This document shows, one piece after another, positions 36,601 through 48,720 of a stretch of DNA of 64,000 nucleotides. Made by a program: the position numbers and the translations under genes. Every line of letters starts with the position of its first letter. Position 1 is the stretch's first letter. Below the pieces are notes generated by a model. It was not told the DNA's origin. It was given only the letters and a program-made list of their open reading frames with translations, and made no database searches. Source of the DNA: Escherichia coli (GTDB lineage: Bacteria > Pseudomonadota > Gammaproteobacteria > Enterobacterales > Enterobacteriaceae); NCBI RefSeq assembly GCF_044324875.1, contig NZ_CP172185.1. The stretch is one strand, 5' to 3'.

Positions 36601-37147
36601 ATCCCTCCTGTCGCGAAAAATGGCCTGCGTTATTGCCAGACGTAATAAAACTTTTGATTAACGTTTCTCGTACTGGTAGCACCTTCATGTACTTTTCTTT
36701 TTTACGAAAAATCAAAAGAGCTAACAAAGGTCATAATTCGCATGAATCATTAATTATTTGTTATTTTCAACATTATTTTTACATTAAGCAGAGATGAATT
36801 GCAGTGAAATTCGACTTAACTTTTATGAAATGCATTTACTCATGGCTAAAGCCACGTCACAAAAATGCAAATTAGAAGTAGATCACAAATATCTCAATAC
36901 ATCAAATCAAGTTAATTTTAAAAATTTAATATTCATGACATTAGTTGACATAACACACTGAATTATAATGAGAATTTGAAAACACACTTTAAACAATCAT
37001 TTCCCGAAAGACATTTTGAAAATAGATCAATTGCAACATTACGGTCAGATAAAGACACTCCTGTGATATTAAACCTGTGCCGTTATGAACGGCCATAAAT
37101 ACGACGTGTGTAACTTATTTTACTCTCTGTCTTACAAAGGATTACCC

Positions 37148-37597
37148 ATGAAGAAAGCAACACTTGTGATTGGCGTTATTGGCGCGGACTGCCATGCAGT
37201 AGGCAATAAAGTTCTGGACCGCGTTTTTAGCAACCATGGCTTCAGAGTCATTAATCTGGGCGTAATGGTCAGCCAGGACGAATATATTGATGCTGCCATT
37301 GAAACTGGTGCTGACGCGATTGTCGTCTCCTCTATCTATGGGCATGGCGATATCGATTGTCTGGGCATGCGCGAACGCTGCATTGAGCGTGGGCTGGGTA
37401 ACATCCTGCTCTATGTGGGCGGTAACCTGGTGGTCGGAAAACATGACTTCGCTGACGTGGAAACCAAGTTCAAAGAGATGGGATTTGATCGCGTCTTTGC
37501 CCCAAGTCATGACTTAGAAGATGTTTGTCAGCTGATGGCCCACGATATCAACCAACGTCATGACGTTGATACTCGCATTCTTGAAGAGGCAATCTGA
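37148..37597 (+). CDS. glmS: Glutamate mutase (methylaspartate mutase) S subunit, B12-binding
   Basis: B12-binding motif (GADCHAVG) and strong resemblance to clostridial GlmS/MutS; start at the ATG at 37148 (149 aa). Confidence 0.85.
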
Positions 37598-38985
37598 TGC
37601 AAATCGTCTCTGTCGATATTGGATCGACGTGGACCAAAGCAGCCCTCTTCGCCCGGGAGGGGGACGCGTTAACGTTGGTTAACCACGTACTGACCCCAAC
37701 CACCACCCATCATCTGGCGAAGGGTTTTTTCTCCAGCCTGAACCTGGTGTTAAACGTAGATAATGCCCTCCCCCTGTTTAACAACGGTGAGGTTGCATTG
37801 AAGTATTCCTCCTCTGCCAAAGGTGGGCTGGCGGTTGCCGCAATGGGGTTGGTGCCATCTATCACCCTGGAAACCGCGAAAGTAACCGCTCACTCTGCGG
37901 GGGCTAAAATTGCGCAATATTACGCCTACAAGCTGAACCGCCGTGATATCCAGGCACTGGAAGAAACGCAGCCCGATATTCTCTTGTTCACCGGCGGCAC
38001 CGACGGCGGAGAAGAAAGCTACGGCCTGAATAACGCCCGTGTGCTGGCAGAATCCAAACTCGACTGCGCCATTATTTATGCCGGAAACCGGGATATTCAG
38101 GACGAGGTGCAGGAGATCCTAGGGCATAAAGACCTGACCATCGTCGACAACGTTCTGCCCGATCTTGACCATCCGAACCCTTTAGCTGCACGCCAGGCTA
38201 TCTGCGACATATTCCTTAAACGCATCGTTAAAGGGAAAGGGCTGGATGTCATTGTTGATAAAACAGGCGAAGAACCAATGCCGACACCATGGACGGTCTT
38301 TGAACTGGTTAAGGCAATCAGTAACGTCGATCACAGCTGGAAAGAGTTCATGCTGATCGACATGGGCGGCGCAACCACCGATGTCTATTCAGCCTGTGCC
38401 AACACGCTCTCGCCCGACACCGTTTTACACGGCGTACCGGAACCCTTCGTGAAACGGACGGTGGAAGGCGATCTGGGAATGCGCGTCTCGGCAATGGTGG
38501 TTGGTGAAAGTGCGAAAGAGTTAGTCAATGTGAATTTTGCTCAGCAACCCGCACAGCTGGACGCTTTTTATCATTACCTCCGTCATCTAGTCGCTCATCC
38601 CGACTACTTACCCGCGAATGTAGAAGAAAAATATTTCGATACCGTCCTGGCCGGACTGTGTGTGGGTTATGCCACCGAAAGACATGCGGGCACCAAAAAA
38701 GAGGTCTGCACCTGCGTCGGCAATGTCGATTTACAGATGGGACGTGACCTGACAACCGTGCGTAAAGTCGTCGGATCCGGCGGATGGCTCTCGCGTGCCA
38801 GTCAGTTCGATATGCATCACTGGTTGAAATACCGCGAGTTAAACGACGACGGTAAACGCATTCTCTTACCGACCGAATTTGAATATTACCGCGATTCCCG
38901 GGGGCTATTACCACTGCTGGCAAACGTCGCCAGAGTCGATCCGCTGGCCGCCGCGCGCACCAGTATTCAATGCTTAACCCTATAA
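37597..38985 (+). CDS. glmL: Glutamate mutase-associated protein L (MutL/GlmL)
   Basis: 462 aa; start overlaps the glmS stop (TGATG); position between S and E subunits as in clostridial operons. Confidence 0.75.
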   Translation: MQIVSVDIGSTWTKAALFAREGDALTLVNHVLTPTTTHHLAKGFFSSLNLVLNVDNALPLFNNGEVALKYSSSAKGGLAVAAMGLVPSITLETAKVTAHSAGAKIAQYYAYKLNRRDIQALEETQPDILLFTGGTDGGEESYGLNNARVLAESKLDCAIIYAGNRDIQDEVQEILGHKDLTIVDNVLPDLDHPNPLAARQAICDIFLKRIVKGKGLDVIVDKTGEEPMPTPWTVFELVKAISNVDHSWKEFMLIDMGGATTDVYSACANTLSPDTVLHGVPEPFVKRTVEGDLGMRVSAMVVGESAKELVNVNFAQQPAQLDAFYHYLRHLVAHPDYLPANVEEKYFDTVLAGLCVGYATERHAGTKKEVCTCVGNVDLQMGRDLTTVRKVVGSGGWLSRASQFDMHHWLKYRELNDDGKRILLPTEFEYYRDSRGLLPLLANVARVDPLAAARTSIQCLTL

Positions 38986-39003
38986 CAATTAAGGCTGCAA
39001 TCA

Positions 39004-40449
39004 ATGGAACTTCGAAATAAGAAATTAACCCATGACGAATTCATGACCGAGCGGCAACAGGTACTGAAAACCTGGGAAACCGGCAAGGATGTTGAAAACT
39101 TTGAAGATGGCGTTAAATACCAACAAACCATTCCTGAGCATAAACGCTTCTCTCTTGTGCTGTTGAAAGCAGACAAGGAAGGTAAAACCCTTAGCCAACC
39201 GCGCGCAGGTGTGGCGCTGATGGACGAACACATCGAACTACTGAAAACACTACAAGAAGAGTGCGATCTGCTGCCGAGCACTATCGATGCATATACCCGT
39301 CTGAATCGGTACGAAGAAGCGGCTGTAGGGATTAAAAAATCCATCGAAGCCGGAACCTCTAAACTGAACGGTTTACCGGTCGTTAACCACGGCGTCGCAG
39401 CTTGCCGTCGCCTCACCGAAACTTTGCAAAAACCGCTACAGATCCGCCACGGCACGCCAGATGCGCGTCTGCTGGCTGAAATCTCGATGTCCAGCGGCTT
39501 TACCAGTTATGAAGGCGGCGGCATTTCCTACAATATTCCGTATGCCAAGCGCGTAACGCTGGAAAAATCGATCCGCGACTGGCAGTACTGCGACCGTTTA
39601 ATGGGGATGTATGAAGAACACGGGATCCGCATCAACCGCGAACCGTTTGGCCCACTAACGGGTACGCTGATCCCGCCGTTTATCTCGCACTCTATCGCGA
39701 TAATCGAAGGCTTGCTGGCGCTGGAACAGGGTGTGAAATCTATCACCGTTGGTTATGGACAGGTCGGCAGCCTGACGCAGGATGTTGCGGCGATCCAGTC
39801 TCTGCGTGAACTTGCACACGAATATTTTCAGAGCTATGGCTATACCGACTATGAATTAAGTACCGTGTTTCACCAGTGGATGGGCGGCTTTCCGGAAGAC
39901 GAATCGAAAGCGTTCGCTATTATCTCCTGGGGCGCAGCCGTCGCGGGGATGTCTGGTGCCACCAAAGTCATCACCAAAAGTCCGCACGAAGCCTGGGGTA
40001 TCCCGACTGCCGCTGCCAACATTCAGGGGCTGAAAGCCTCCCGCCAGATGCTCAACATGGTCAACGAGCAGAAATTCCCGCCGTGCCCTGCGGTTGAACT
40101 GGAAATTGAACTGATTAAGAGCGAGGTTCGCGCGGTACTGAATAAAGTGTTCGAACTGGGTAATGGTGATATTGCGCGCGGTACGGTGCTGGCATTTGAA
40201 GCGGGCGTACTGGATGTGCCGTTTGCGCCAGCCGCCTGCAACGCGGGCAAAATTCTTCCGGTCCGTGACAACACCGGCGCGATACGCGTACTGGAAGCCG
40301 GAGCCGTTCCATTGCCAAAAGATATTCTCGACCTCCACCACGATTACGTTGCGGAACGCGCACGCTTTGAAGGACGCCAACCGACATTCCAGATGGTTGT
40401 AGATGACATCAATGCTGTATCCCACAGTAAATTAATAGGAAGACCATAA
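39004..40449 (+). CDS. glmE: Glutamate mutase (methylaspartate mutase) E subunit
   Basis: 481 aa; extended similarity to clostridial GlmE (LPSTIDAYTR, GGGISYN, TVFHQWMGGFP, FQMVVDDI). Confidence 0.88.
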   Translation: MELRNKKLTHDEFMTERQQVLKTWETGKDVENFEDGVKYQQTIPEHKRFSLVLLKADKEGKTLSQPRAGVALMDEHIELLKTLQEECDLLPSTIDAYTRLNRYEEAAVGIKKSIEAGTSKLNGLPVVNHGVAACRRLTETLQKPLQIRHGTPDARLLAEISMSSGFTSYEGGGISYNIPYAKRVTLEKSIRDWQYCDRLMGMYEEHGIRINREPFGPLTGTLIPPFISHSIAIIEGLLALEQGVKSITVGYGQVGSLTQDVAAIQSLRELAHEYFQSYGYTDYELSTVFHQWMGGFPEDESKAFAIISWGAAVAGMSGATKVITKSPHEAWGIPTAAANIQGLKASRQMLNMVNEQKFPPCPAVELEIELIKSEVRAVLNKVFELGNGDIARGTVLAFEAGVLDVPFAPAACNAGKILPVRDNTGAIRVLEAGAVPLPKDILDLHHDYVAERARFEGRQPTFQMVVDDINAVSHSKLIGRP

Positions 40450-41690
40450 TGAAAATAAAACAGGCTCTGTTCACCGCTGGCTACTCCTCATTCTATTTCG
40501 ATGACCAGCAGGCGATAAAAAACGGAGCGGGTCACGACGGTTTTTTTTATACCGGGGAGCCGGTAACACAGGGGTTTAACGCCGTTCGTCAGGCCGGGGA
40601 GTGCGTATCGGTACAGTTGATTCTGGAAAACGGCGCGGTCGCCGTAGGTGACTGTGCTGCCGTACAGTATTCCGGGGCAGGTGGTCGCGATCCACTGTTC
40701 CTCGCAGAGCACTTTATTCCGTTCCTCAACGACCATATCAAGCCATTACTGGTAGGCCGCGATGTGGATGCTTTCCTGCCGAATGCCCGTTTCTTCGACA
40801 AATTGCGTATTGACGGCAACTTGCTGCATACCGCCGTGCGCTACGGATTATCACAGGCGCTGCTTGATGCTACCGCGCTGGCAACCGGCCGTCTGAAAAC
40901 TGAAGTGGTCTGTGATGAATGGCAGTTGCCACGCGTGGCGGAATCCATTCCATTATTTGGTCAGAGCGGCGACGATCGATATATCGCCGTCGATAAGATG
41001 ATCCTTAAGGGCATCGACGTGCTGCCCCATGCGCTGATTAATAACGTCGAAGAGAAGCTGGGCTTTAAAGGTGAAAAACTGCGCGAATATGTCCGCTGGC
41101 TGTCGGATCGTATTCTGAGCAAGCGCACCAGCGCACGCTACCACCCTACCCTGCACATCGATGTATACGGCACTATCGGTCTGATCTTCGATATGGATCC
41201 GCTTCGCTGTGCGCAATACATCGCCAGCCTGGAAAAAGAAGCGCAAGGCCTGCCGCTCTACATTGAAGGGCCGGTCGATGCTGGTAACAAGCCCGATCAA
41301 ATTCGCCTGCTGACCGCGATTACCAAAGAGCTGACACGCCTCGGTTCCGGCGTGAAAATTGTGGCCGATGAATGGTGTAACACCTACCAGGATATTGTTG
41401 ATTTCACAGATGCCGCCAGTTGCCACATGGTGCAAATCAAAACCCCGGATCTGGGCAGTATTCACAACATCGTCGATGCAGTTCTTTATTGCAACAGCCA
41501 CAGCATGGAAGCGTACCAGGGCGGCACCTGCAATGAAACTGATGTCAGTGCCCGCACCTGTGTCCACGTCGCCCTTGCCGCTCGCCCCATGCGTATGCTG
41601 GTAAAACCAGGGATGGGCTTTGACGAAGGCCTCGATATCGTCTTCAACGAAATGAATCGTACTATCGCGCTGTTGCAGGCTAAGGATTAA
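40449..41690 (+). CDS. mal: 3-methylaspartate ammonia-lyase
   Basis: 413 aa, enolase-superfamily-like; start overlaps the glmE stop (TAATG); typical MAL length. Confidence 0.8.
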   Translation: MKIKQALFTAGYSSFYFDDQQAIKNGAGHDGFFYTGEPVTQGFNAVRQAGECVSVQLILENGAVAVGDCAAVQYSGAGGRDPLFLAEHFIPFLNDHIKPLLVGRDVDAFLPNARFFDKLRIDGNLLHTAVRYGLSQALLDATALATGRLKTEVVCDEWQLPRVAESIPLFGQSGDDRYIAVDKMILKGIDVLPHALINNVEEKLGFKGEKLREYVRWLSDRILSKRTSARYHPTLHIDVYGTIGLIFDMDPLRCAQYIASLEKEAQGLPLYIEGPVDAGNKPDQIRLLTAITKELTRLGSGVKIVADEWCNTYQDIVDFTDAASCHMVQIKTPDLGSIHNIVDAVLYCNSHSMEAYQGGTCNETDVSARTCVHVALAARPMRMLVKPGMGFDEGLDIVFNEMNRTIALLQAKD

Positions 41691-41693
41691 CAA

Positions 41694-43064
41694 ATGGCTC
41701 GTTCTTTTAAAGTCTTATCGCCAACGGCAATCCTCGGGTATGGATTCCCGGAAGAGAGCTTCCGTAAAGCGATGGCAGAATCGCCCGATCTGATCGCCGT
41801 TGATGCAGGCTCTTCCGATCCAGGCCCCCACTACCTCGGGGCAGGCAAACCGTTTACCGATCGCGCAGGGGTCAAGCGCGATCTGCGCTATATGATCACC
41901 GCAGGCGTGCAAAATAATATACCGGTGGTGATCGGAACGGCTGGCGGTTCTGGTGCCGCACCACACCTGGAGTGGTGCCGAGAAATAATTCATGAGATTG
42001 CCCGGGAAGAGCAACTCGCGTTCTCGATGGCGCTGATCCCGGCAGACGTTGACAAAGCCATCGTCCACCAGGCGCTGGATAACGGCAAAATCACGGCGCT
42101 GGATTTTGTCCCGCCGTTAACCCACGACGCGATTGACGAAAGTACGTATATCGTCGCGCAAATGGGCATCGAACCCTTCCAGCGGGCGCTGAAAGAAGGC
42201 GCGCAAGTGGTGCTGGGCGGGCGCGCTTACGACCCGGCCTGCTTTGCTGCGCTACCGATCATGCAAGGCTTTGATGAAGGTCTGGCGCTGCATTGTGGGA
42301 AAATCCTTGAATGCGCGGCAATCGCCGCAACGCCCGGCTCAGGCTCTGACTGTGCGATGGGCATCATTGATGACAACGGCTTTACGCTGAAGACATTTAA
42401 TCCGAAGCGTAAATTTACCGAAACGTCAGCGGCTGCACACACACTGTATGAGAAATCCGATCCCTACTTCCTGCCTGGACCTGGCGGCGTGTTGAACCTG
42501 AAAGGCTGCACATTTAAAGCGGTCAATGACGGCGAAGTGTACGTCAGCGGTTCTAAGTATGAAGAAACGCCGTATTCCCTGAAACTGGAAGGTGCGCGAC
42601 GGGTGGGCTTCCGCTGTCTGACCATCGCAGGAACGCGCGACCCGATCATGATCGCCGGGATCGATAAAATCATTGATGAAGTCAAAACCAGCGTTTCGCG
42701 TAACCTGTCGCTCGACGATGACAGTATTCACATCAATTTCCACCTGTACGGCAAAAACGGGGTGATGGGCGACCATGAACCGATGCAAACTGCCGGGCAT
42801 GAGCTGGGGATTGTCCTTGATGTAGTTGCACCGACCCAGGAAATTGCCAATAGCGTTTGCTCGCTGGTGCGCTCTACCATGCTGCACTACGGCTATGAAA
42901 ACCGCATCGCTACCGCAGGTAATCTGGCGTTCCCGTTCTCCCCTTCTGATATCCAGGGCGGGCCGGTATACGAATTTTCCATATATCACCTGATTGAAGC
43001 CAACGACGCTCTGCGTTTTGATTTCCATATTGAACAGGTGACGCCAGAAGGAGTTCAGGCATGA
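41694..43064 (+). CDS. Conserved protein of unknown function, resembling the DUF1446 (AtuA-like) family
   Basis: 456-aa ORF starting 4 nt after the mal stop; family assignment from memory, not searched. Confidence 0.6.
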   Translation: MARSFKVLSPTAILGYGFPEESFRKAMAESPDLIAVDAGSSDPGPHYLGAGKPFTDRAGVKRDLRYMITAGVQNNIPVVIGTAGGSGAAPHLEWCREIIHEIAREEQLAFSMALIPADVDKAIVHQALDNGKITALDFVPPLTHDAIDESTYIVAQMGIEPFQRALKEGAQVVLGGRAYDPACFAALPIMQGFDEGLALHCGKILECAAIAATPGSGSDCAMGIIDDNGFTLKTFNPKRKFTETSAAAHTLYEKSDPYFLPGPGGVLNLKGCTFKAVNDGEVYVSGSKYEETPYSLKLEGARRVGFRCLTIAGTRDPIMIAGIDKIIDEVKTSVSRNLSLDDDSIHINFHLYGKNGVMGDHEPMQTAGHELGIVLDVVAPTQEIANSVCSLVRSTMLHYGYENRIATAGNLAFPFSPSDIQGGPVYEFSIYHLIEANDALRFDFHIEQVTPEGVQA

Positions 43065-43378
43065 AACAGTCAATTGTCTCACTGGCGCAAGTCATTCGTT
43101 CGAAAAATGCCGGACCTTACGAACTGGTTTTAGATATTTTATTTAAAACCAAAGAAAACTATGAGCGAGTTAAATCATCAGGGCAATTAACCCCAGAACT
43201 GATTGCGCGCTTATATCATGTTGAACCTGACTTTATTCATCGTATTGTCTGGTTTGATCCTTCTAACGCAGTAAAAATCGTCATGCCACGAGATATTATC
43301 TCCGGGAATGTAGGTGACAATGATGTCTATGGTGCACAGCAACATGCACCTTTATTAAATATGAGTTTCGATTTGTAA
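43061..43378 (+). CDS. Small conserved protein of unknown function (105 aa), likely the DUF4387-type partner
   Basis: ATGA overlap with the preceding gene; size and pairing typical of DUF1446/DUF4387 gene pairs as I recall them. Confidence 0.55.
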   Translation: MKQSIVSLAQVIRSKNAGPYELVLDILFKTKENYERVKSSGQLTPELIARLYHVEPDFIHRIVWFDPSNAVKIVMPRDIISGNVGDNDVYGAQQHAPLLNMSFDL

Positions 43379-43461
43379 AAATCCGAATACTTTTAGCCAA
43401 CTGACATCCCGTCACTTATTGCAGTTCAACACTTCAGCTATTTGTAAGGTTGTAATAGCAG

Positions 43462-43493
43462 GTAGATGCCTGAATCTCTATTCAGACATCTAC
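43462..43493 (+). terminator. Strong hairpin (gtagatg-ctgaat…attcag-catctac) with partial U-tract, between the DUF pair and the transporter
   Basis: 13-bp stem with one mismatch followed by ttctcctgattctgattt; seen directly. Confidence 0.45.
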
Positions 43494-43538
43494 TTCTCCT
43501 GATTCTGATTTATCGCCGTGCACCTGATGGAGGAAAAA

Positions 43539-44819
43539 ATGAAGAAAATAAGTTTAACCACGATGATTCTTTTGGCACTGGTACTTGGAATGATTATCGG
43601 CGTAGTGCTCAATAACACTGCTTCACCGGAAACCGCAAAACTCTATGCGCAAGAAATATCGATATTCACGACGATTTTCTTACGACTGATAAAAATGATT
43701 ATCGCTCCGTTAGTGGTCTCTACCCTGGTGGTAGGTATAGCTAAAATGGGCGATGCCAAAGCCCTTGGTCGTATTTTTTCTAAAACACTCTTTTTATTTA
43801 TTTGCGCCTCATTGCTGTCAATTGCCTTAGGCTTGATAACAGTAAATTTCTTCATGCCAGGCACAGGAATTAATTTTGTTGCACACGGAGCCGAAACCAC
43901 CGGAGTGGTCGCGTCAGAACCCTTTACGCTAAAAGTATTTATTTCGCATGCTTTCCCCACCAGCATTGTCGATGCCATGGCGCACAATGAAATTTTGCAA
44001 ATCGTAGTGTTCTCAATTTTCCTCGGCTGTAGCCTGACGGCGATTGGCGAGAAAGGCAGCGCCATCGTTCACGCCTTAGATTCGCTGGCACATGCCATGT
44101 TAAAGCTCACTGGCTACGTCATGCTCTTCGCTCCCCTGACCGTATTCGCCGCTATTTCAGCATTGATTGCTGAACGAGGACTGGCAGTTATGGTGAGCGC
44201 CGGGATCTTTATGGGTGAATTTTATTTCACCATGTTGTTACTTTGGGTGCTGCTTATCGGTCTGGCCATCGTTTATGTCGGCCCCTGCATCAGACGCCTG
44301 ACCCGCGCCCTTTCGGAACCCGCTCTGCTGGCATTTACCACATCCAGTTCTGAAGCGGCTTTTCCGGGAACGCTTGAAAAACTGGAGCAATTTGGCGTTT
44401 CCCCCAAAATTGCCAGCTTTGTCTTACCCATTGGCTACTCATTTAATCTCGTTGGATCAATGGCCTACTGCTCCTTCGCCACAGTTTTCATCGCCCAGGC
44501 CTGCAATATCCATTTATCCATCGGTGAGCAAATCACCATGCTGTTGATCCTGATGTTGACCTCGAAAGGAATGGCTGGCGTACCACGCGCCTCAATGGTG
44601 GTTATCGCCGCCACGCTCAACCAGTTCAATATTCCGGAAGCGGGGCTGATCTTGCTGATGGGCGTTGATCCGTTCCTTGATATGGGGCGTTCCGCGACAA
44701 ACGTCATGAGCAACGCAATGGGCGCTGCGATGGTGAGTCGGTGGGAAGGCGAACATTTCGGCGAGGGTTGTCGGGGTAAAGCATTAAAACCCAATGAATC
44801 GAACGTTGCTCTGCCCTGA
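43539..44819 (+). CDS. Dicarboxylate/amino-acid:cation symporter (GltP/DctA-like)
   Basis: Polytopic membrane protein with DAACS-like motifs; GGAGG RBS before the ATG at 43539 (426 aa). Confidence 0.8.
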   Translation: MKKISLTTMILLALVLGMIIGVVLNNTASPETAKLYAQEISIFTTIFLRLIKMIIAPLVVSTLVVGIAKMGDAKALGRIFSKTLFLFICASLLSIALGLITVNFFMPGTGINFVAHGAETTGVVASEPFTLKVFISHAFPTSIVDAMAHNEILQIVVFSIFLGCSLTAIGEKGSAIVHALDSLAHAMLKLTGYVMLFAPLTVFAAISALIAERGLAVMVSAGIFMGEFYFTMLLLWVLLIGLAIVYVGPCIRRLTRALSEPALLAFTTSSSEAAFPGTLEKLEQFGVSPKIASFVLPIGYSFNLVGSMAYCSFATVFIAQACNIHLSIGEQITMLLILMLTSKGMAGVPRASMVVIAATLNQFNIPEAGLILLMGVDPFLDMGRSATNVMSNAMGAAMVSRWEGEHFGEGCRGKALKPNESNVALP

Positions 44820-44926
44820 GGGGGATCTTAAGCAATCAGAAGCCAATGACTACGCATTTTTATAAGCCGGATCATGAAGTTAGACGGCAATTAAGTAACA
44901 CTAACGTTTAAGGTGAAAAGTGAAAT

Positions 44927-46579
44927 ATGTCCAAACCATTTATCTGGCAAGAACCGTTTCTACAAAATAAAGACGGTACAGAATATACATTAATTAGCGA
45001 TCAACATATTACAGTAACGGAATTAGACGGCGAAGAAGTGATAAAAATCGCTCCTGAAGCATTAACGCTGCTTGCCCGGCAGGCATTTTATGAAGCCTCT
45101 TTTTTCTTACGTTCCGCTCATTTGCAACAGGTCGCCAGCATTCTTAACGATCCGCAGGCCAGTAGTAATGATAAATACGTTGCGTTGCAGTTATTACGTA
45201 ATGCTGAAGTCTCAGCAAAAGGGGTATTACCCAACTGTCAGGATACCGGCACCGCAACTATTGTTGCCAGTAAAGGGCAACAGATATGGACGGGAGGTAA
45301 CGACGCTGAAGCCTTAAGCAAAGGCATTTACAGTACTTTCCAGGAAAATAATCTGCGCTTTTCACAAAATGCGCCGCTGGATATGTATACCGAAGTCAAT
45401 ACGCAAACCAATCTCCCGGCGCAGATTGATATCAGCGCTGTCGCTGGTAATGAGTACCATTTTCTCTGTGTTAATAAAGGGGGCGGCTCCGCCAATAAAG
45501 CCGCACTTTATCAGGAAACCAAATCCTTATTGCAACCAGAAAAACTGACCGCATTTTTAATCGAAAAAATGAAATCGCTGGGCACCGCTGCCTGCCCGCC
45601 TTACCACATCGCCTTTGTCGTCGGAGGGCTTTCAGCCGATCAAACCTTAAAAGTTGCCAAGCTGGCCTCTACGAAATATTACGACAATTTGCCCACCAGC
45701 GGAAACGAGCAGGGACAAGCATTCCGTGATATTGAGCTGGAAAAAGTGTTGCTCGAGGTCAGTCAGCAATTTGGTATTGGTGCGCAATTTGGGGGTAAAT
45801 ATTTCGCTCATGATATTCGCGTCATTCGTCTGCCGCGTCACGGTGGCTCTTGCCCGATAGCTATGACGCTCTCCTGTTCTGCCGATCGCAATATCAAAGC
45901 AAAAATTAACAAGCACGGTATCTGGCTGGAAAAACTCGAACACAATCCGGGGCAATATATTCCAGCCTCACTGCGGGAAGAAAATCACGCGCAACATGTA
46001 CAACTGGATCTAAACCGTCCGTTGCGTGACGTGATGCAGGATCTCGCCAGATTACCGGTAGGCACCCGCGTGTCGTTAAGTGGTCCCATCGTAGTGGCAC
46101 GCGATATCGCCCACGCCAAAATAAAAGCGCGGCTGGATAACGCCGAACCGATGCCGGATTACCTGAAGCATCATATTGTCTATTACGCTGGCCCGGCGAA
46201 AACACCGGAGAACATGGCCTGCGGTTCACTGGGTCCAACCACGGGCGGTCGAATGGACGGTTATGTCGATACCTTCCAGGCGGCTGGCGGCAGTCTGGTG
46301 ATGTTATCGAAAGGTAACCGCAGCCAGCAGGTCACCGATGCCTGTCACAAACATGGTGGCTTCAATCTGGGTAGTATTGGCGGTGCAGCTGCGTTACTGG
46401 CGCAAGAATATGTCAAAAGTCTGCGTTGCCTGGAATACCCGGAGCTGGGTATGGAAGCGGTGTGGATGATGGAAGTGGAAAATCTGCCCGCATTCATCCT
46501 GGTAGATGATAAAGGCAATAATTTCTTTAGTCAGTTTGAGCAGCAACACCGCTGCGCCAGTTGCCCTGCGGGACATTAA
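44927..46579 (+). CDS. fumD: Class I (Fe-S) fumarate hydratase paralogue; FumD-type mesaconase/fumarase
   Basis: 550 aa, alignable by eye with FumA along the whole length; clustering with glutamate mutase and methylaspartase matches published FumD. Confidence 0.8.
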
Positions 46580-46588
46580 GGAAAATGA

Positions 46589-47191
46589 ATGGAAGCGCGA
46601 ATTTCAACTGAACGGCATGTGCAGCGCCAGCAGAAATTGAAGGAACAGGTCGATACGCGCATCGCGGCGGCGATAGAGAAAAAAGGGATTTTGATTGTTT
46701 TCACCGGCAATGGCAAAGGGAAATCCACTGCCGCGTTTGGTACTGTGACGCGCGCGGTGGGTCATGGCAAAACGGTGGGGGTTGCGCAGTACATCAAGGG
46801 GCAATGGGACAACGGCGAATACAACCTTCTCCAGCCGCTGGGGGTTGAGTTTCATATTATGGGAACCGGTTTTACCTGGGAGACACAGAACCGGCAAGCG
46901 GATATCGACGCGGCGAAAGAGGTCTGGTCGGAAAGCAAACGGATGCTGGCTGACAAGCGTTACGACTTAGTGGTGCTTGATGAGCTGACCTATATGCTGG
47001 CTTACCATTATCTGGATACCGAAGAAGTGATCGCTTCTCTGCAAAACCGCCCGGCACAACAAAGTGTCATTGTCACCGGACGCGGTTGCCACAGTCAGAT
47101 ATTAAAAATGGCGGATACGGTCAGCGAAATCCGCCCCGTCAAACATGCTTTTGATAACGGCATTCAGGCCCAGCCGGGTATCGACTGGTAA
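46589..47191 (+). CDS. Cob(I)alamin/cob(I)yrinic acid a,c-diamide adenosyltransferase paralogue (BtuR/CobO-like)
   Basis: 200 aa; P-loop (GNGKGKSTAAFG) and close resemblance to E. coli BtuR. Confidence 0.85.
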   Translation: MEARISTERHVQRQQKLKEQVDTRIAAAIEKKGILIVFTGNGKGKSTAAFGTVTRAVGHGKTVGVAQYIKGQWDNGEYNLLQPLGVEFHIMGTGFTWETQNRQADIDAAKEVWSESKRMLADKRYDLVVLDELTYMLAYHYLDTEEVIASLQNRPAQQSVIVTGRGCHSQILKMADTVSEIRPVKHAFDNGIQAQPGIDW

Positions 47192-47194
47192 TAA

Positions 47195-47221
47195 CTGCGC
47201 CTGGCATCCCGCCAGGCGCAG
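47195..47221. terminator. Bidirectional hairpin (ctgcgcctggc…gccaggcgcag) between convergent cobO-like and LysR genes
   Basis: 11-bp perfect stem followed by gtttta; seen directly. Confidence 0.6.
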
Positions 47222-47224
47222 GTT

Positions 47225-48130
47225 TTACATCTCCTGCGGTACAACCGATTTCGCCAGCAACCATTCACGAAATTGCTGCAAGTGCGGTGAGTCAGACTTC
47301 TCTTCCTGCCACGTCATAATAAAACGATTACCGGTACGAATAGGCACATCACAGGGGATCACCATATCGCCACTATCCAAATCATGTTGAATAGCGAAAC
47401 GTGGTAACAGCGCCACGCCGAGATTAGAGCGCACGGCGGCAATCAGCATTGAAAGCAAATCGAAACGTGGTCCGTTGTTGACCAGCGGACTGCTAACGCC
47501 AGATAAGGCAAACCACTCTTCCCAGCCAGTAATACGGGTACTTTGATGCAGAAGTGGTAACTCTGTAAGCAGTTCTGCCACTGACAGTTTTTGATCGGAC
47601 ATTGCAAGCAAACTGCCGCTGCATACCGGCAAAATCTCCTCATCAAAGAGATATTCTACTTCCGCCCAGGGCGCGCAAAAATTTTCGCGCATAATGACAG
47701 CATCGTACTCCCGATTAAGAAAATCGCCGTTATTAGCTAAAGAGTGAATATTAACAATAATATCGGGATGTAACTTTGTGAATTCATGTAAATTTGGGAT
47801 TAACCAGTGGGTACTAAACGTAGGATTCACGGCAAGTTCAATAACCTGAACCGTAGGCTGCCAGGTCATAATGGTATTGGTATCGCGTTCCAGCTTATTT
47901 AATGTTTCTTTTACTATCCCCAGGTAATACTTCCCTGCATCATTAAGAAAAATACGTTTTTTAGAGTGTGAAAATAACGGAGTATGTAAAAATTCCTCCA
48001 GCGCACTCACTTGTCTGAATACTGCACTTTGGGTCAACGCTAACTCCTCTGCCGCTTTGGTATAACTTTCATGACGTGCGACGACCTCAAAAGTCACCAG
48101 CAGCTCCGTTTTAGGTATTTTTCCTCGCAT
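47225..48130 (-). CDS. LysR-family transcriptional regulator
   Basis: 301 aa; N-terminal HTH (YTKAAEELALTQSAVFRQVSALEE). Confidence 0.85.
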   Translation of the reverse strand: MRGKIPKTELLVTFEVVARHESYTKAAEELALTQSAVFRQVSALEEFLHTPLFSHSKKRIFLNDAGKYYLGIVKETLNKLERDTNTIMTWQPTVQVIELAVNPTFSTHWLIPNLHEFTKLHPDIIVNIHSLANNGDFLNREYDAVIMRENFCAPWAEVEYLFDEEILPVCSGSLLAMSDQKLSVAELLTELPLLHQSTRITGWEEWFALSGVSSPLVNNGPRFDLLSMLIAAVRSNLGVALLPRFAIQHDLDSGDMVIPCDVPIRTGNRFIMTWQEEKSDSPHLQQFREWLLAKSVVPQEM

Positions 48131-48169
48131 AATGCCGTCCCTTAAAAATAGTTTAAACCATCAAAAATA

Positions 48170-48191
48170 CATTACTTATTACGAAGTAATG
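48170..48191. promoter_or_regulatory. Perfect 22-bp palindrome CATTACTTATTACGAAGTAATG upstream of the LysR gene
   Basis: 8-bp inverted arms around a 6-bp spacer, 40-60 bp upstream of the start codon. Confidence 0.45.
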
Positions 48192-48693
48192 GTAACCAAA
48201 GCAGCAATAAATAATTTATAAGAATCATGATTGACATTTATAACCCAGTAAGCCTGGCGTGACAAATATCTTAATCAGATAATAATAATCCGAAAAGCAC
48301 AGCGCCTTTCGAATTATCCGGAATCACATTAAGTGAAAATTATTAAATTGATATCATTTATCATATCTGTGGATATTATGATAAACAATCAACAAAGATT
48401 TTATTTTTGATTTATAGCATATCCCTCTAAGAATTTTTGCGATGCTGCAATATCCGGGGTAAAGACCCGATCCTGGCTGACAAATGGCACGACTTGACGA
48501 TAAGCGGTGAACATCGCTTTTGTTGATTTACTTAACGCTACGGTCAAACGCTGGGAAGCCAGTGCATCAGGTAACGATTCGAAATTCGCCGTCGTTCTTA
48601 TTCGTGGCTTGCGGTCGGTTGCGGCAATCCACAGTGGCTGTGGTCATGCAGTCAAGCCAGCGGTCAGATTTCGACCGTGGTTAACATTTAAGG

Positions 48694-48720
48694 CATAAAA
48701 AAGGCCATCATACGATGGCC
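48694..48720 (-). terminator. Rho-independent terminator after sucD (ggccatc…gatggcc plus U-run)
   Basis: Hairpin then TTTTTTTAT on the minus strand. Confidence 0.7.

Follow-up and report, generated by a model that had tools for sequence, protein, structure and literature searches.

A fumD-type class I fumarase/mesaconase gene in a methylaspartate-pathway cluster between cydA and sucD of Escherichia coli

The class I fumarase paralogue FumD was described and named by Kronen & Berg in 2015 (PLoS One 10:e0145098, PMC4682846). For the anaerobically purified ECs0757 enzyme, they reported kcat/Km values of 2x10^6 M-1 s-1 with mesaconate and 7.5x10^5 M-1 s-1 with fumarate (Table 2 of PMC4682846), and found that FumA and FumB hydrate mesaconate with 4% and 19%, respectively, of their own fumarate efficiency. 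The mesaconate preference of FumD is just 2- to 3-fold, and the enzyme is also a good fumarase; compared with FumA and FumB, these published kinetics amount to a 10- to 60-fold relative specificity towards mesaconate. Different class I fumarases have independently given rise to mesaconases on several occasions (Kronen & Berg, PMC4682846). The clostridial MesAB enzyme and the class I fumarase/mesaconase of Burkholderia xenovorans, which we set beside FumD by their description, belong to the same superfamily and catalyze the same reaction, and clostridial mesaconase genes are also found in methylaspartate-pathway clusters (PMC4682846). Unlike FumD, MesAB is a two-subunit, heterodimeric enzyme. 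In class I fumarases, three cysteines hold the [4Fe-4S] cluster, whose fourth iron binds the substrate hydroxyl or water, and the acid/base roles fall to Asp/His and Thr/Arg (bioRxiv 10.1101/2022.09.03.506457).

Here we analyzed a 64,000-nucleotide stretch of E. coli DNA (contig NZ_CP172185.1), referred to below as the window. On its + strand, positions 44927-46579 hold an uninterrupted ORF, from an ATG start to a TAA stop at 46577-46579, that codes for a class I [4Fe-4S] fumarate hydratase paralogue of 550 aa. A previous sequence-only reading of the window had noticed that this protein aligns with FumA along its full length and had proposed that it is a FumD-type mesaconase. The first observation was borne out by an end-to-end alignment with K-12 FumA (373 of 547 positions, or 68.2% identical; 366 of 547, or 66.9%, for K-12 FumB) and by both Pfam domains, PF05681 (Fumerase) spanning residues 50-325 with an E of 1e-73 and PF05683 (Fumerase_C) spanning residues 331-536 with an E of 6e-78. 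The protein therefore has the single-chain architecture (Fumerase + Fumerase_C) of class I Fe-S fumarases. Among the NCBIfam models, it passes the FumD equivalog model NF011921, which has 550 positions, with 1279.6 bits against a cut-off of 1060, and fails both the FumA model NF011919 (924.3 against 1105) and the FumB-type model NF011920 (920.1 against 1094).

The proposal of a FumD-type mesaconase can be made more specific, as the gene is fumD itself by the agreement of primer sites, protein identity, and gene order with the O157:H7 locus. The gene-specific parts of the published fumD cloning primers, ATGTCCAAACCATTTATCTGGC and TTAATGTCCCGCAGGGCA, designed for O157:H7 ECs0757 / ECATCC700728_0849 (PMC4682846), match the window with 0 mismatches at 44927-44948 and 46562-46579, which are the two ends of the ORF. 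The window protein is 98.4% identical (541/550) to Sakai ECs_0757, and the two group in the tree with 100% bootstrap. Like the O157:H7 gene, it codes for 550 aa ending in a CASCPAGH tail, has the same flanking genes, and lies between cydA and sucD, an interval that in Sakai houses the same set of genes in identical order. We conclude that the ORF is almost certainly fumD, which some E. coli strains carry as a fourth fumarase gene and which encodes the third catalytic step of the methylaspartate pathway cluster. It is thus an already characterized gene, whose kinetics, cluster context, and distribution were published in 2015, and its identification brings little novelty, as RefSeq annotation already has a separate equivalog model for FumD.

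Unlike the O157:H7 gene, the window allele comes from a non-O157 lineage, with commensal or environmental isolates as its closest complete genomes, and its product differs from Sakai FumD by nine substitutions. These are mostly conservative (P76Q, N175D, V243I, V278A, T314A, N405S, A406G, D411E, and V447I), and none of the nine falls on a catalytic residue; T314A lies three residues from the cluster ligand C317. At the nucleotide level, the two alleles differ at 21 positions, 12 synonymous and 9 non-synonymous, with a dN/dS of ~0.21. From the 98.4% identity to ECs0757, we infer that the window allele would have the published FumD activity. The sequence-only reading had also stated that class I fumarase paralogues in such a context hydrate mesaconate to (S)-citramalate, and the ECs0757 kinetics agree with it (PMC4682846).

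FumD shares with FumA and FumB the fold, the domain order, the three Cys ligands, ten substrate/catalytic residues, a CxxC motif, and some mesaconate hydration. It differs from them in its sequence (67-68% identity), its placement in a separate clade, its inverted preference (mesaconate over fumarate), and the accessory, rather than core, nature of its gene. These differences bear on whether the ORF could have arisen by a recent duplication of fumA or fumB within the genome. Such an origin would fit the full-length alignment with both proteins, but the protein identities of 68% and 67%, and a DNA identity of ~69%, are far from the 90% identity between K-12 FumA and FumB. In a neighbor-joining tree (519 ungapped columns; outgroup, the Leishmania enzyme), FumA and FumB are sisters (100% bootstrap), and the FumD clade, with members from Escherichia, Citrobacter, Enterobacter, Buttiauxella, Klebsiella, Salmonella, E. 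fergusonii, and Pseudescherichia, branches outside this pair with 100% bootstrap of its own. A group of Hafnia, Yersinia, and Providencia sequences is the sister of the FumD clade (90% bootstrap). Orthologs in the same gene context in Citrobacter, Klebsiella, Salmonella, Buttiauxella, E. fergusonii, and Pseudescherichia are also at odds with a duplication within one genome. The possibility of a recent fumA/fumB duplicate, which the earlier reading had named as the finding that would contradict its proposal, is refuted by the identity values, the DNA distribution, and the tree, and we consider its probability negligible. With both cut-offs failed, 67-68% identity, and a position outside the FumA+FumB clade, the window protein is not a member of the FumA/FumB housekeeping class.

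To place the active site, the first-shell residues listed in bioRxiv 10.1101/2022.09.03.506457 were mapped onto FumD through an alignment with Leishmania major FH-2 (LmFH, PDB 5L2R), which is 59% identical to FumD over residues 18-536 (E 4e-211). With this mapping, the cluster ligands C104, C223, and C317 and the first-shell residues Q105, D106, R144, G187, H305, R392, T438, T439, R442, and K462 are all present in FumD, and all first-shell residues are conserved with the Leishmania enzyme. FH-2 differs from FumD in that it is a fumarase of a eukaryote, outside any mesaconate context, and has no CxxC tail at its C-terminus. This CxxC (C543 and C546, encoded at 46553-46564) lies beyond the Fumerase_C domain and the end of the alignment with the Leishmania structure; FumA, FumB, and FumD all have it, as do >90% of the 24 sequences in the alignment.

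The sequence-only reading had suggested that the active-site differences that set the substrate preference could be read directly from the protein. This does not hold for the substrate-contact shell: the 13 first-shell and cluster-ligand residues are the same in FumA, FumB, FumD, and LmFH (13/13), and substrate preference is therefore not readable from substrate-contact differences. An identical first shell fits a preference difference that is quantitative and the promiscuity of all three E. coli enzymes. Given this identity, the search for specificity determinants must aim at second-shell positions. Six residues that are invariant within the FumD clade but differ from FumA, FumB, and LmFH (N183, G307, L315, V389, G440, and S461) lie within 1-4 residues of a first-shell residue in the sequence, with S461 before K462, L315 before C317, and V389 before R392. 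Further FumD-clade positions that differ from FumA, FumB, and LmFH are T111, A193, N480, A487, and M514. The stand-alone Providencia fumarase also has N183, G307, G440, T111, and A193, and these five may thus mark lineage rather than determine specificity. One could imagine that the shift from fumarate to mesaconate is encoded wholly outside the substrate-contact shell, with S461, L315, V389, and N480 as candidate positions, possibly together with G440, G307, and N183. We regard this proposal as speculative and rather unlikely; if it were true, moving the candidate residues to FumA would for the first time provide a sequence rule that separates mesaconases from fumarases, with the window allele as one natural test variant.

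Four relatives in the alignment were treated apart. Two metagenomic proteins (P0084 and P0085) look like FumA/FumD mosaics in the discriminating positions and were set aside as possible assembly chimeras. Two others deviate at catalytic positions (LPG for CQD in P0048 and H305Y in P0003) and were taken as sequencing errors or defective copies.

The genes around fumD form a cluster with the layout of Fig. 5 of PMC4682846 and of the Sakai genome, in which fumD is co-localized with glmS, glmL, glmE, and mal. On the + strand, as is fumD, the window codes for the B12-binding subunit S of methylaspartate (glutamate) mutase (glmS, 37148-37597; NF002612 and TIGR01501 above cut-off, and so named by RefSeq), the glutamate mutase accessory or reactivating protein (glmL, 37597-38985; 884.8 bits to TIGR01319 and 507 to NF040745 against a cut-off of 475), the mutase subunit E (glmE, 39004-40449; TIGR01503, 863.5 bits against 390), and 3-methylaspartate ammonia-lyase, which makes mesaconate, the substrate of FumD (mal, 40449-41690; TIGR01502, 543.9 bits against 286). 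Each of these four genes, spanning 37148-41690, scores above an NCBIfam equivalog cut-off. Two further genes follow on the same strand, coding for an AtuA-family (DUF1446) protein of 456 aa (41694-43064, Pfam PF07287) and a DUF4387 protein of 105 aa (43061-43378, Pfam PF14330), and after them a gene for a GltP/DctA-like dicarboxylate/amino acid:cation symporter (43539-44819), so annotated by RefSeq and a putative glutamate importer, with matches to the GltP/DctA models below their equivalog cut-offs. The transporter gene was named GltP, and the regulator LTTR, by Kronen & Berg (PMC4682846). With mal, these two genes, and the transporter gene in the interval between glmE and fumD, the earlier description of fumD as lying next to the glutamate mutase genes needs qualification: the shared strand and cluster stand, but fumD begins ~4.5 kb downstream of glmE.

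The same reading had placed fumD 9 nt upstream of a corrinoid adenosyltransferase gene, and this was confirmed. The fumD stop is separated by a 9-nt spacer, GGAAAATGA, from the ATG (46589) of a cobA/cobO-type gene on the + strand (46589-47191), whose 200-aa product is a cob(I)yrinic acid a,c-diamide adenosyltransferase according to TIGR00708 (246.6 bits against a cut-off of 167.75), NF004637 (296 bits, above cut-off), and RefSeq, which names it cobO. A LysR-family, GcvA-like transcriptional regulator is encoded on the opposite strand (47225-48130), convergent with the operon; it was assigned by RefSeq, with a best NCBIfam match (NF008352) that is below cut-off. Between the convergent stops of cobA and the LysR gene, a consensus scan found, as a pattern match only, a strong, GC-rich hairpin (47195-47221) with an 11-bp stem that has 9 G-C pairs, which probably acts as a bidirectional terminator at the end of the operon. 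From glmS through the DUF4387 gene, starts and stops abut or overlap, with gaps of ~160 nt before the transporter gene and ~107 nt before fumD, an arrangement suggesting that fumD-cobA and the upstream genes make up one or two operons. All ten genes of the cluster are intact in the window. Upstream of glmS, a 548-nt AT-rich non-coding stretch (36600-37148) presumably serves the cluster as promoter and regulatory region; no strong + strand sigma-70 site was found there by the consensus scan.

These genes can be arranged into a pathway. Glutamate would be imported by the GltP-like carrier and rearranged by GlmSE, an adenosylcobalamin-dependent glutamate mutase, with GlmL as its probable reactivase and CobA as the probable maker of its coenzyme; by its position, the cobA gene seems to supply adenosylcobalamin to the glutamate mutase. 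Methylaspartate ammonia-lyase would then deaminate the rearranged glutamate to mesaconate. FumD, as a presumably oxygen-sensitive, homodimeric class I [4Fe-4S] hydro-lyase, would reversibly hydrate mesaconate (2-methylfumarate) to (S)-citramalate while still accepting fumarate. As for the last step, Kronen & Berg could not identify a citramalate lyase, and what becomes of citramalate was left undecided in their study (PMC4682846). The AtuA/DUF4387 pair most probably splits citramalate into pyruvate and acetate. RefSeq names the two window proteins only as ‘AtuA family protein’ and ‘DUF4387 domain-containing protein’, and both have orthologs of known structure: the AtuA-family protein matches chain A of PDB 9ERQ/9EVF over its full length (E 1.5e-290, ~91% identity), and the DUF4387 protein matches chain B (E 5e-57, residues 1-104). 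These chains were deposited as ‘Citramalate lyase, subunit A (cmlA)’ and ‘subunit B (cmlB)’. Based on these molecule names and on the methods section of a preprint using a Raoultella Cml enzyme, the pair is most probably the citramalate lyase CmlAB. If this assignment is true, the accessory block encodes a complete methylaspartate route from glutamate to pyruvate and acetate, and the question raised in 2015 on the fate of (S)-citramalate appears to be answered by two adjacent genes.

The cluster lies in an accessory segment of roughly 14 kb (approx. 34700-48696), delimited by junction alignments with K-12, whose cydA-sucD interval carries mngR-mngA-mngB in place of this segment. On the sucD side, the window is identical to K-12 through the sdhX terminator and diverges at ~48696, directly after the terminator of the SdhX sRNA; on the cydA side, K-12 homology resumes at ~34610-34730, upstream of cydA. 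The rest of the window is core genome, with ybhC, gal, mod, tol-pal, and cyd on one side and suc, sdh, gltA, and ybgD/Q on the other. A search with the 12.2 kb around fumD matched chromosomes of E. coli with identities reaching 99.4%, and RefSeq annotates the best-matching genome with glmS-glmL-glmE-mal-AtuA-DUF4387-symporter-fumarate hydratase-cobO and a convergent LysR gene between cydA and sucD. The proposal that fumD sits in an accessory block was thus upheld: the 12.2-kb cluster is present in 1138 of the 5426 complete E. coli genomes (~21%), and 1117 of them cover at least 80% of it. This is close to one fifth, against the 26.5% reported in 2015 (PMC4682846). The fumD gene itself occurs at no less than 95% nucleotide identity in 1122 complete-genome records; in genomes without it, the best match is fumB at ~69%, and no match falls between 80% and 95% identity. 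All carriers were described in 2015 as (opportunistic) pathogens (PMC4682846). For the closest cluster-carrying complete genomes found here, the sources are human and chicken faeces, sewage, sediment, and soil or leaf litter. Given these source habitats, the 2015 statement looks too narrow. If the cluster is complete as proposed, about one fifth of complete E. coli genomes, non-pathogenic isolates included, have a block for the conversion of glutamate to pyruvate plus acetate.

Outside E. coli, the full cluster is found in Pseudescherichia vulneris (L011), in the same gene order and the same cydA-sucD slot but without cobA. On a metagenomic scaffold of Hafnia alvei (L009, 1-11255), a FumD-like gene lies between genes for a LysR regulator and CobA, and glmS/MutL are nearby, separated from it by cobalamin-biosynthesis genes (CbiA-like, CobS, and CobT-like); the Hafnia locus arranges the same set of functions differently. 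Within the same sister group, the Providencia copy is stand-alone, unlike the Hafnia copy with its LysR and CobA neighbors.

From a physiological perspective, any role of FumD in vivo is tentative, because Kronen & Berg found no conditions for expression of the cluster, no methylaspartate ammonia-lyase activity, and no growth on glutamate. One could argue that FumD is a third, redundant class I fumarase isozyme for the TCA cycle or fumarate respiration, whose mesaconase activity is nothing but family promiscuity. Its fumarase activity is indeed high (kcat/Km 7.5x10^5 M-1 s-1), FumA and FumB hydrate mesaconate as well (4% and 19%), the first-shell residues do not separate the three enzymes, and fumD adjoins the suc and sdh operons of the TCA cycle. 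However, this proximity to sucABCD reflects the insertion site of the island, as mngRAB is found there in K-12, and promiscuity is set against the 10- to 60-fold relative specificity shift to mesaconate. In addition, fumD travels strictly with glmSLE and mal across genera, and ~79% of E. coli genomes do without it. We therefore find a redundant isozyme a very improbable explanation of FumD, and prefer the assignment of the enzyme to the mesaconate step of the methylaspartate pathway.

A different concern is that the cluster, fumD included, is a cryptic remnant, effectively silent in E. coli and now without a physiological function. E. coli does not synthesize B12 de novo, which would agree with a glutamate mutase pathway that has fallen out of use. 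In strain ATCC 700728, moreover, no condition under which the cluster is expressed was found, nor any methylaspartate ammonia-lyase activity or benefit for growth on glutamate (PMC4682846). Nevertheless, the ten genes of the window are intact, the cluster is kept at 95% identity or more in >1100 genomes (with at least 80% coverage in 1117), and fumD has a dN/dS of 0.21. The cluster also has an adenosyltransferase and a regulator of its own, and methylaspartate ammonia-lyase activity was found in other enterobacteria by earlier work (cited in PMC4682846). Taken together, these observations make a silent remnant quite improbable, and a maintained methylaspartate-pathway function of FumD remains the preferred reading.

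Finally, two ORFs of the + strand lie at the cydA-side edge of the accessory segment, at 35153-36097 (314 aa) and 36178-36600 (140 aa), in a region of 38-41% GC. Searches of Pfam, NCBIfam, PADLOC, and PHROGs gave no match for either. O157:H7 Sakai has both ORFs, namely ECs_0767 (35153-36097) and ECs_0766 (36178-36600).
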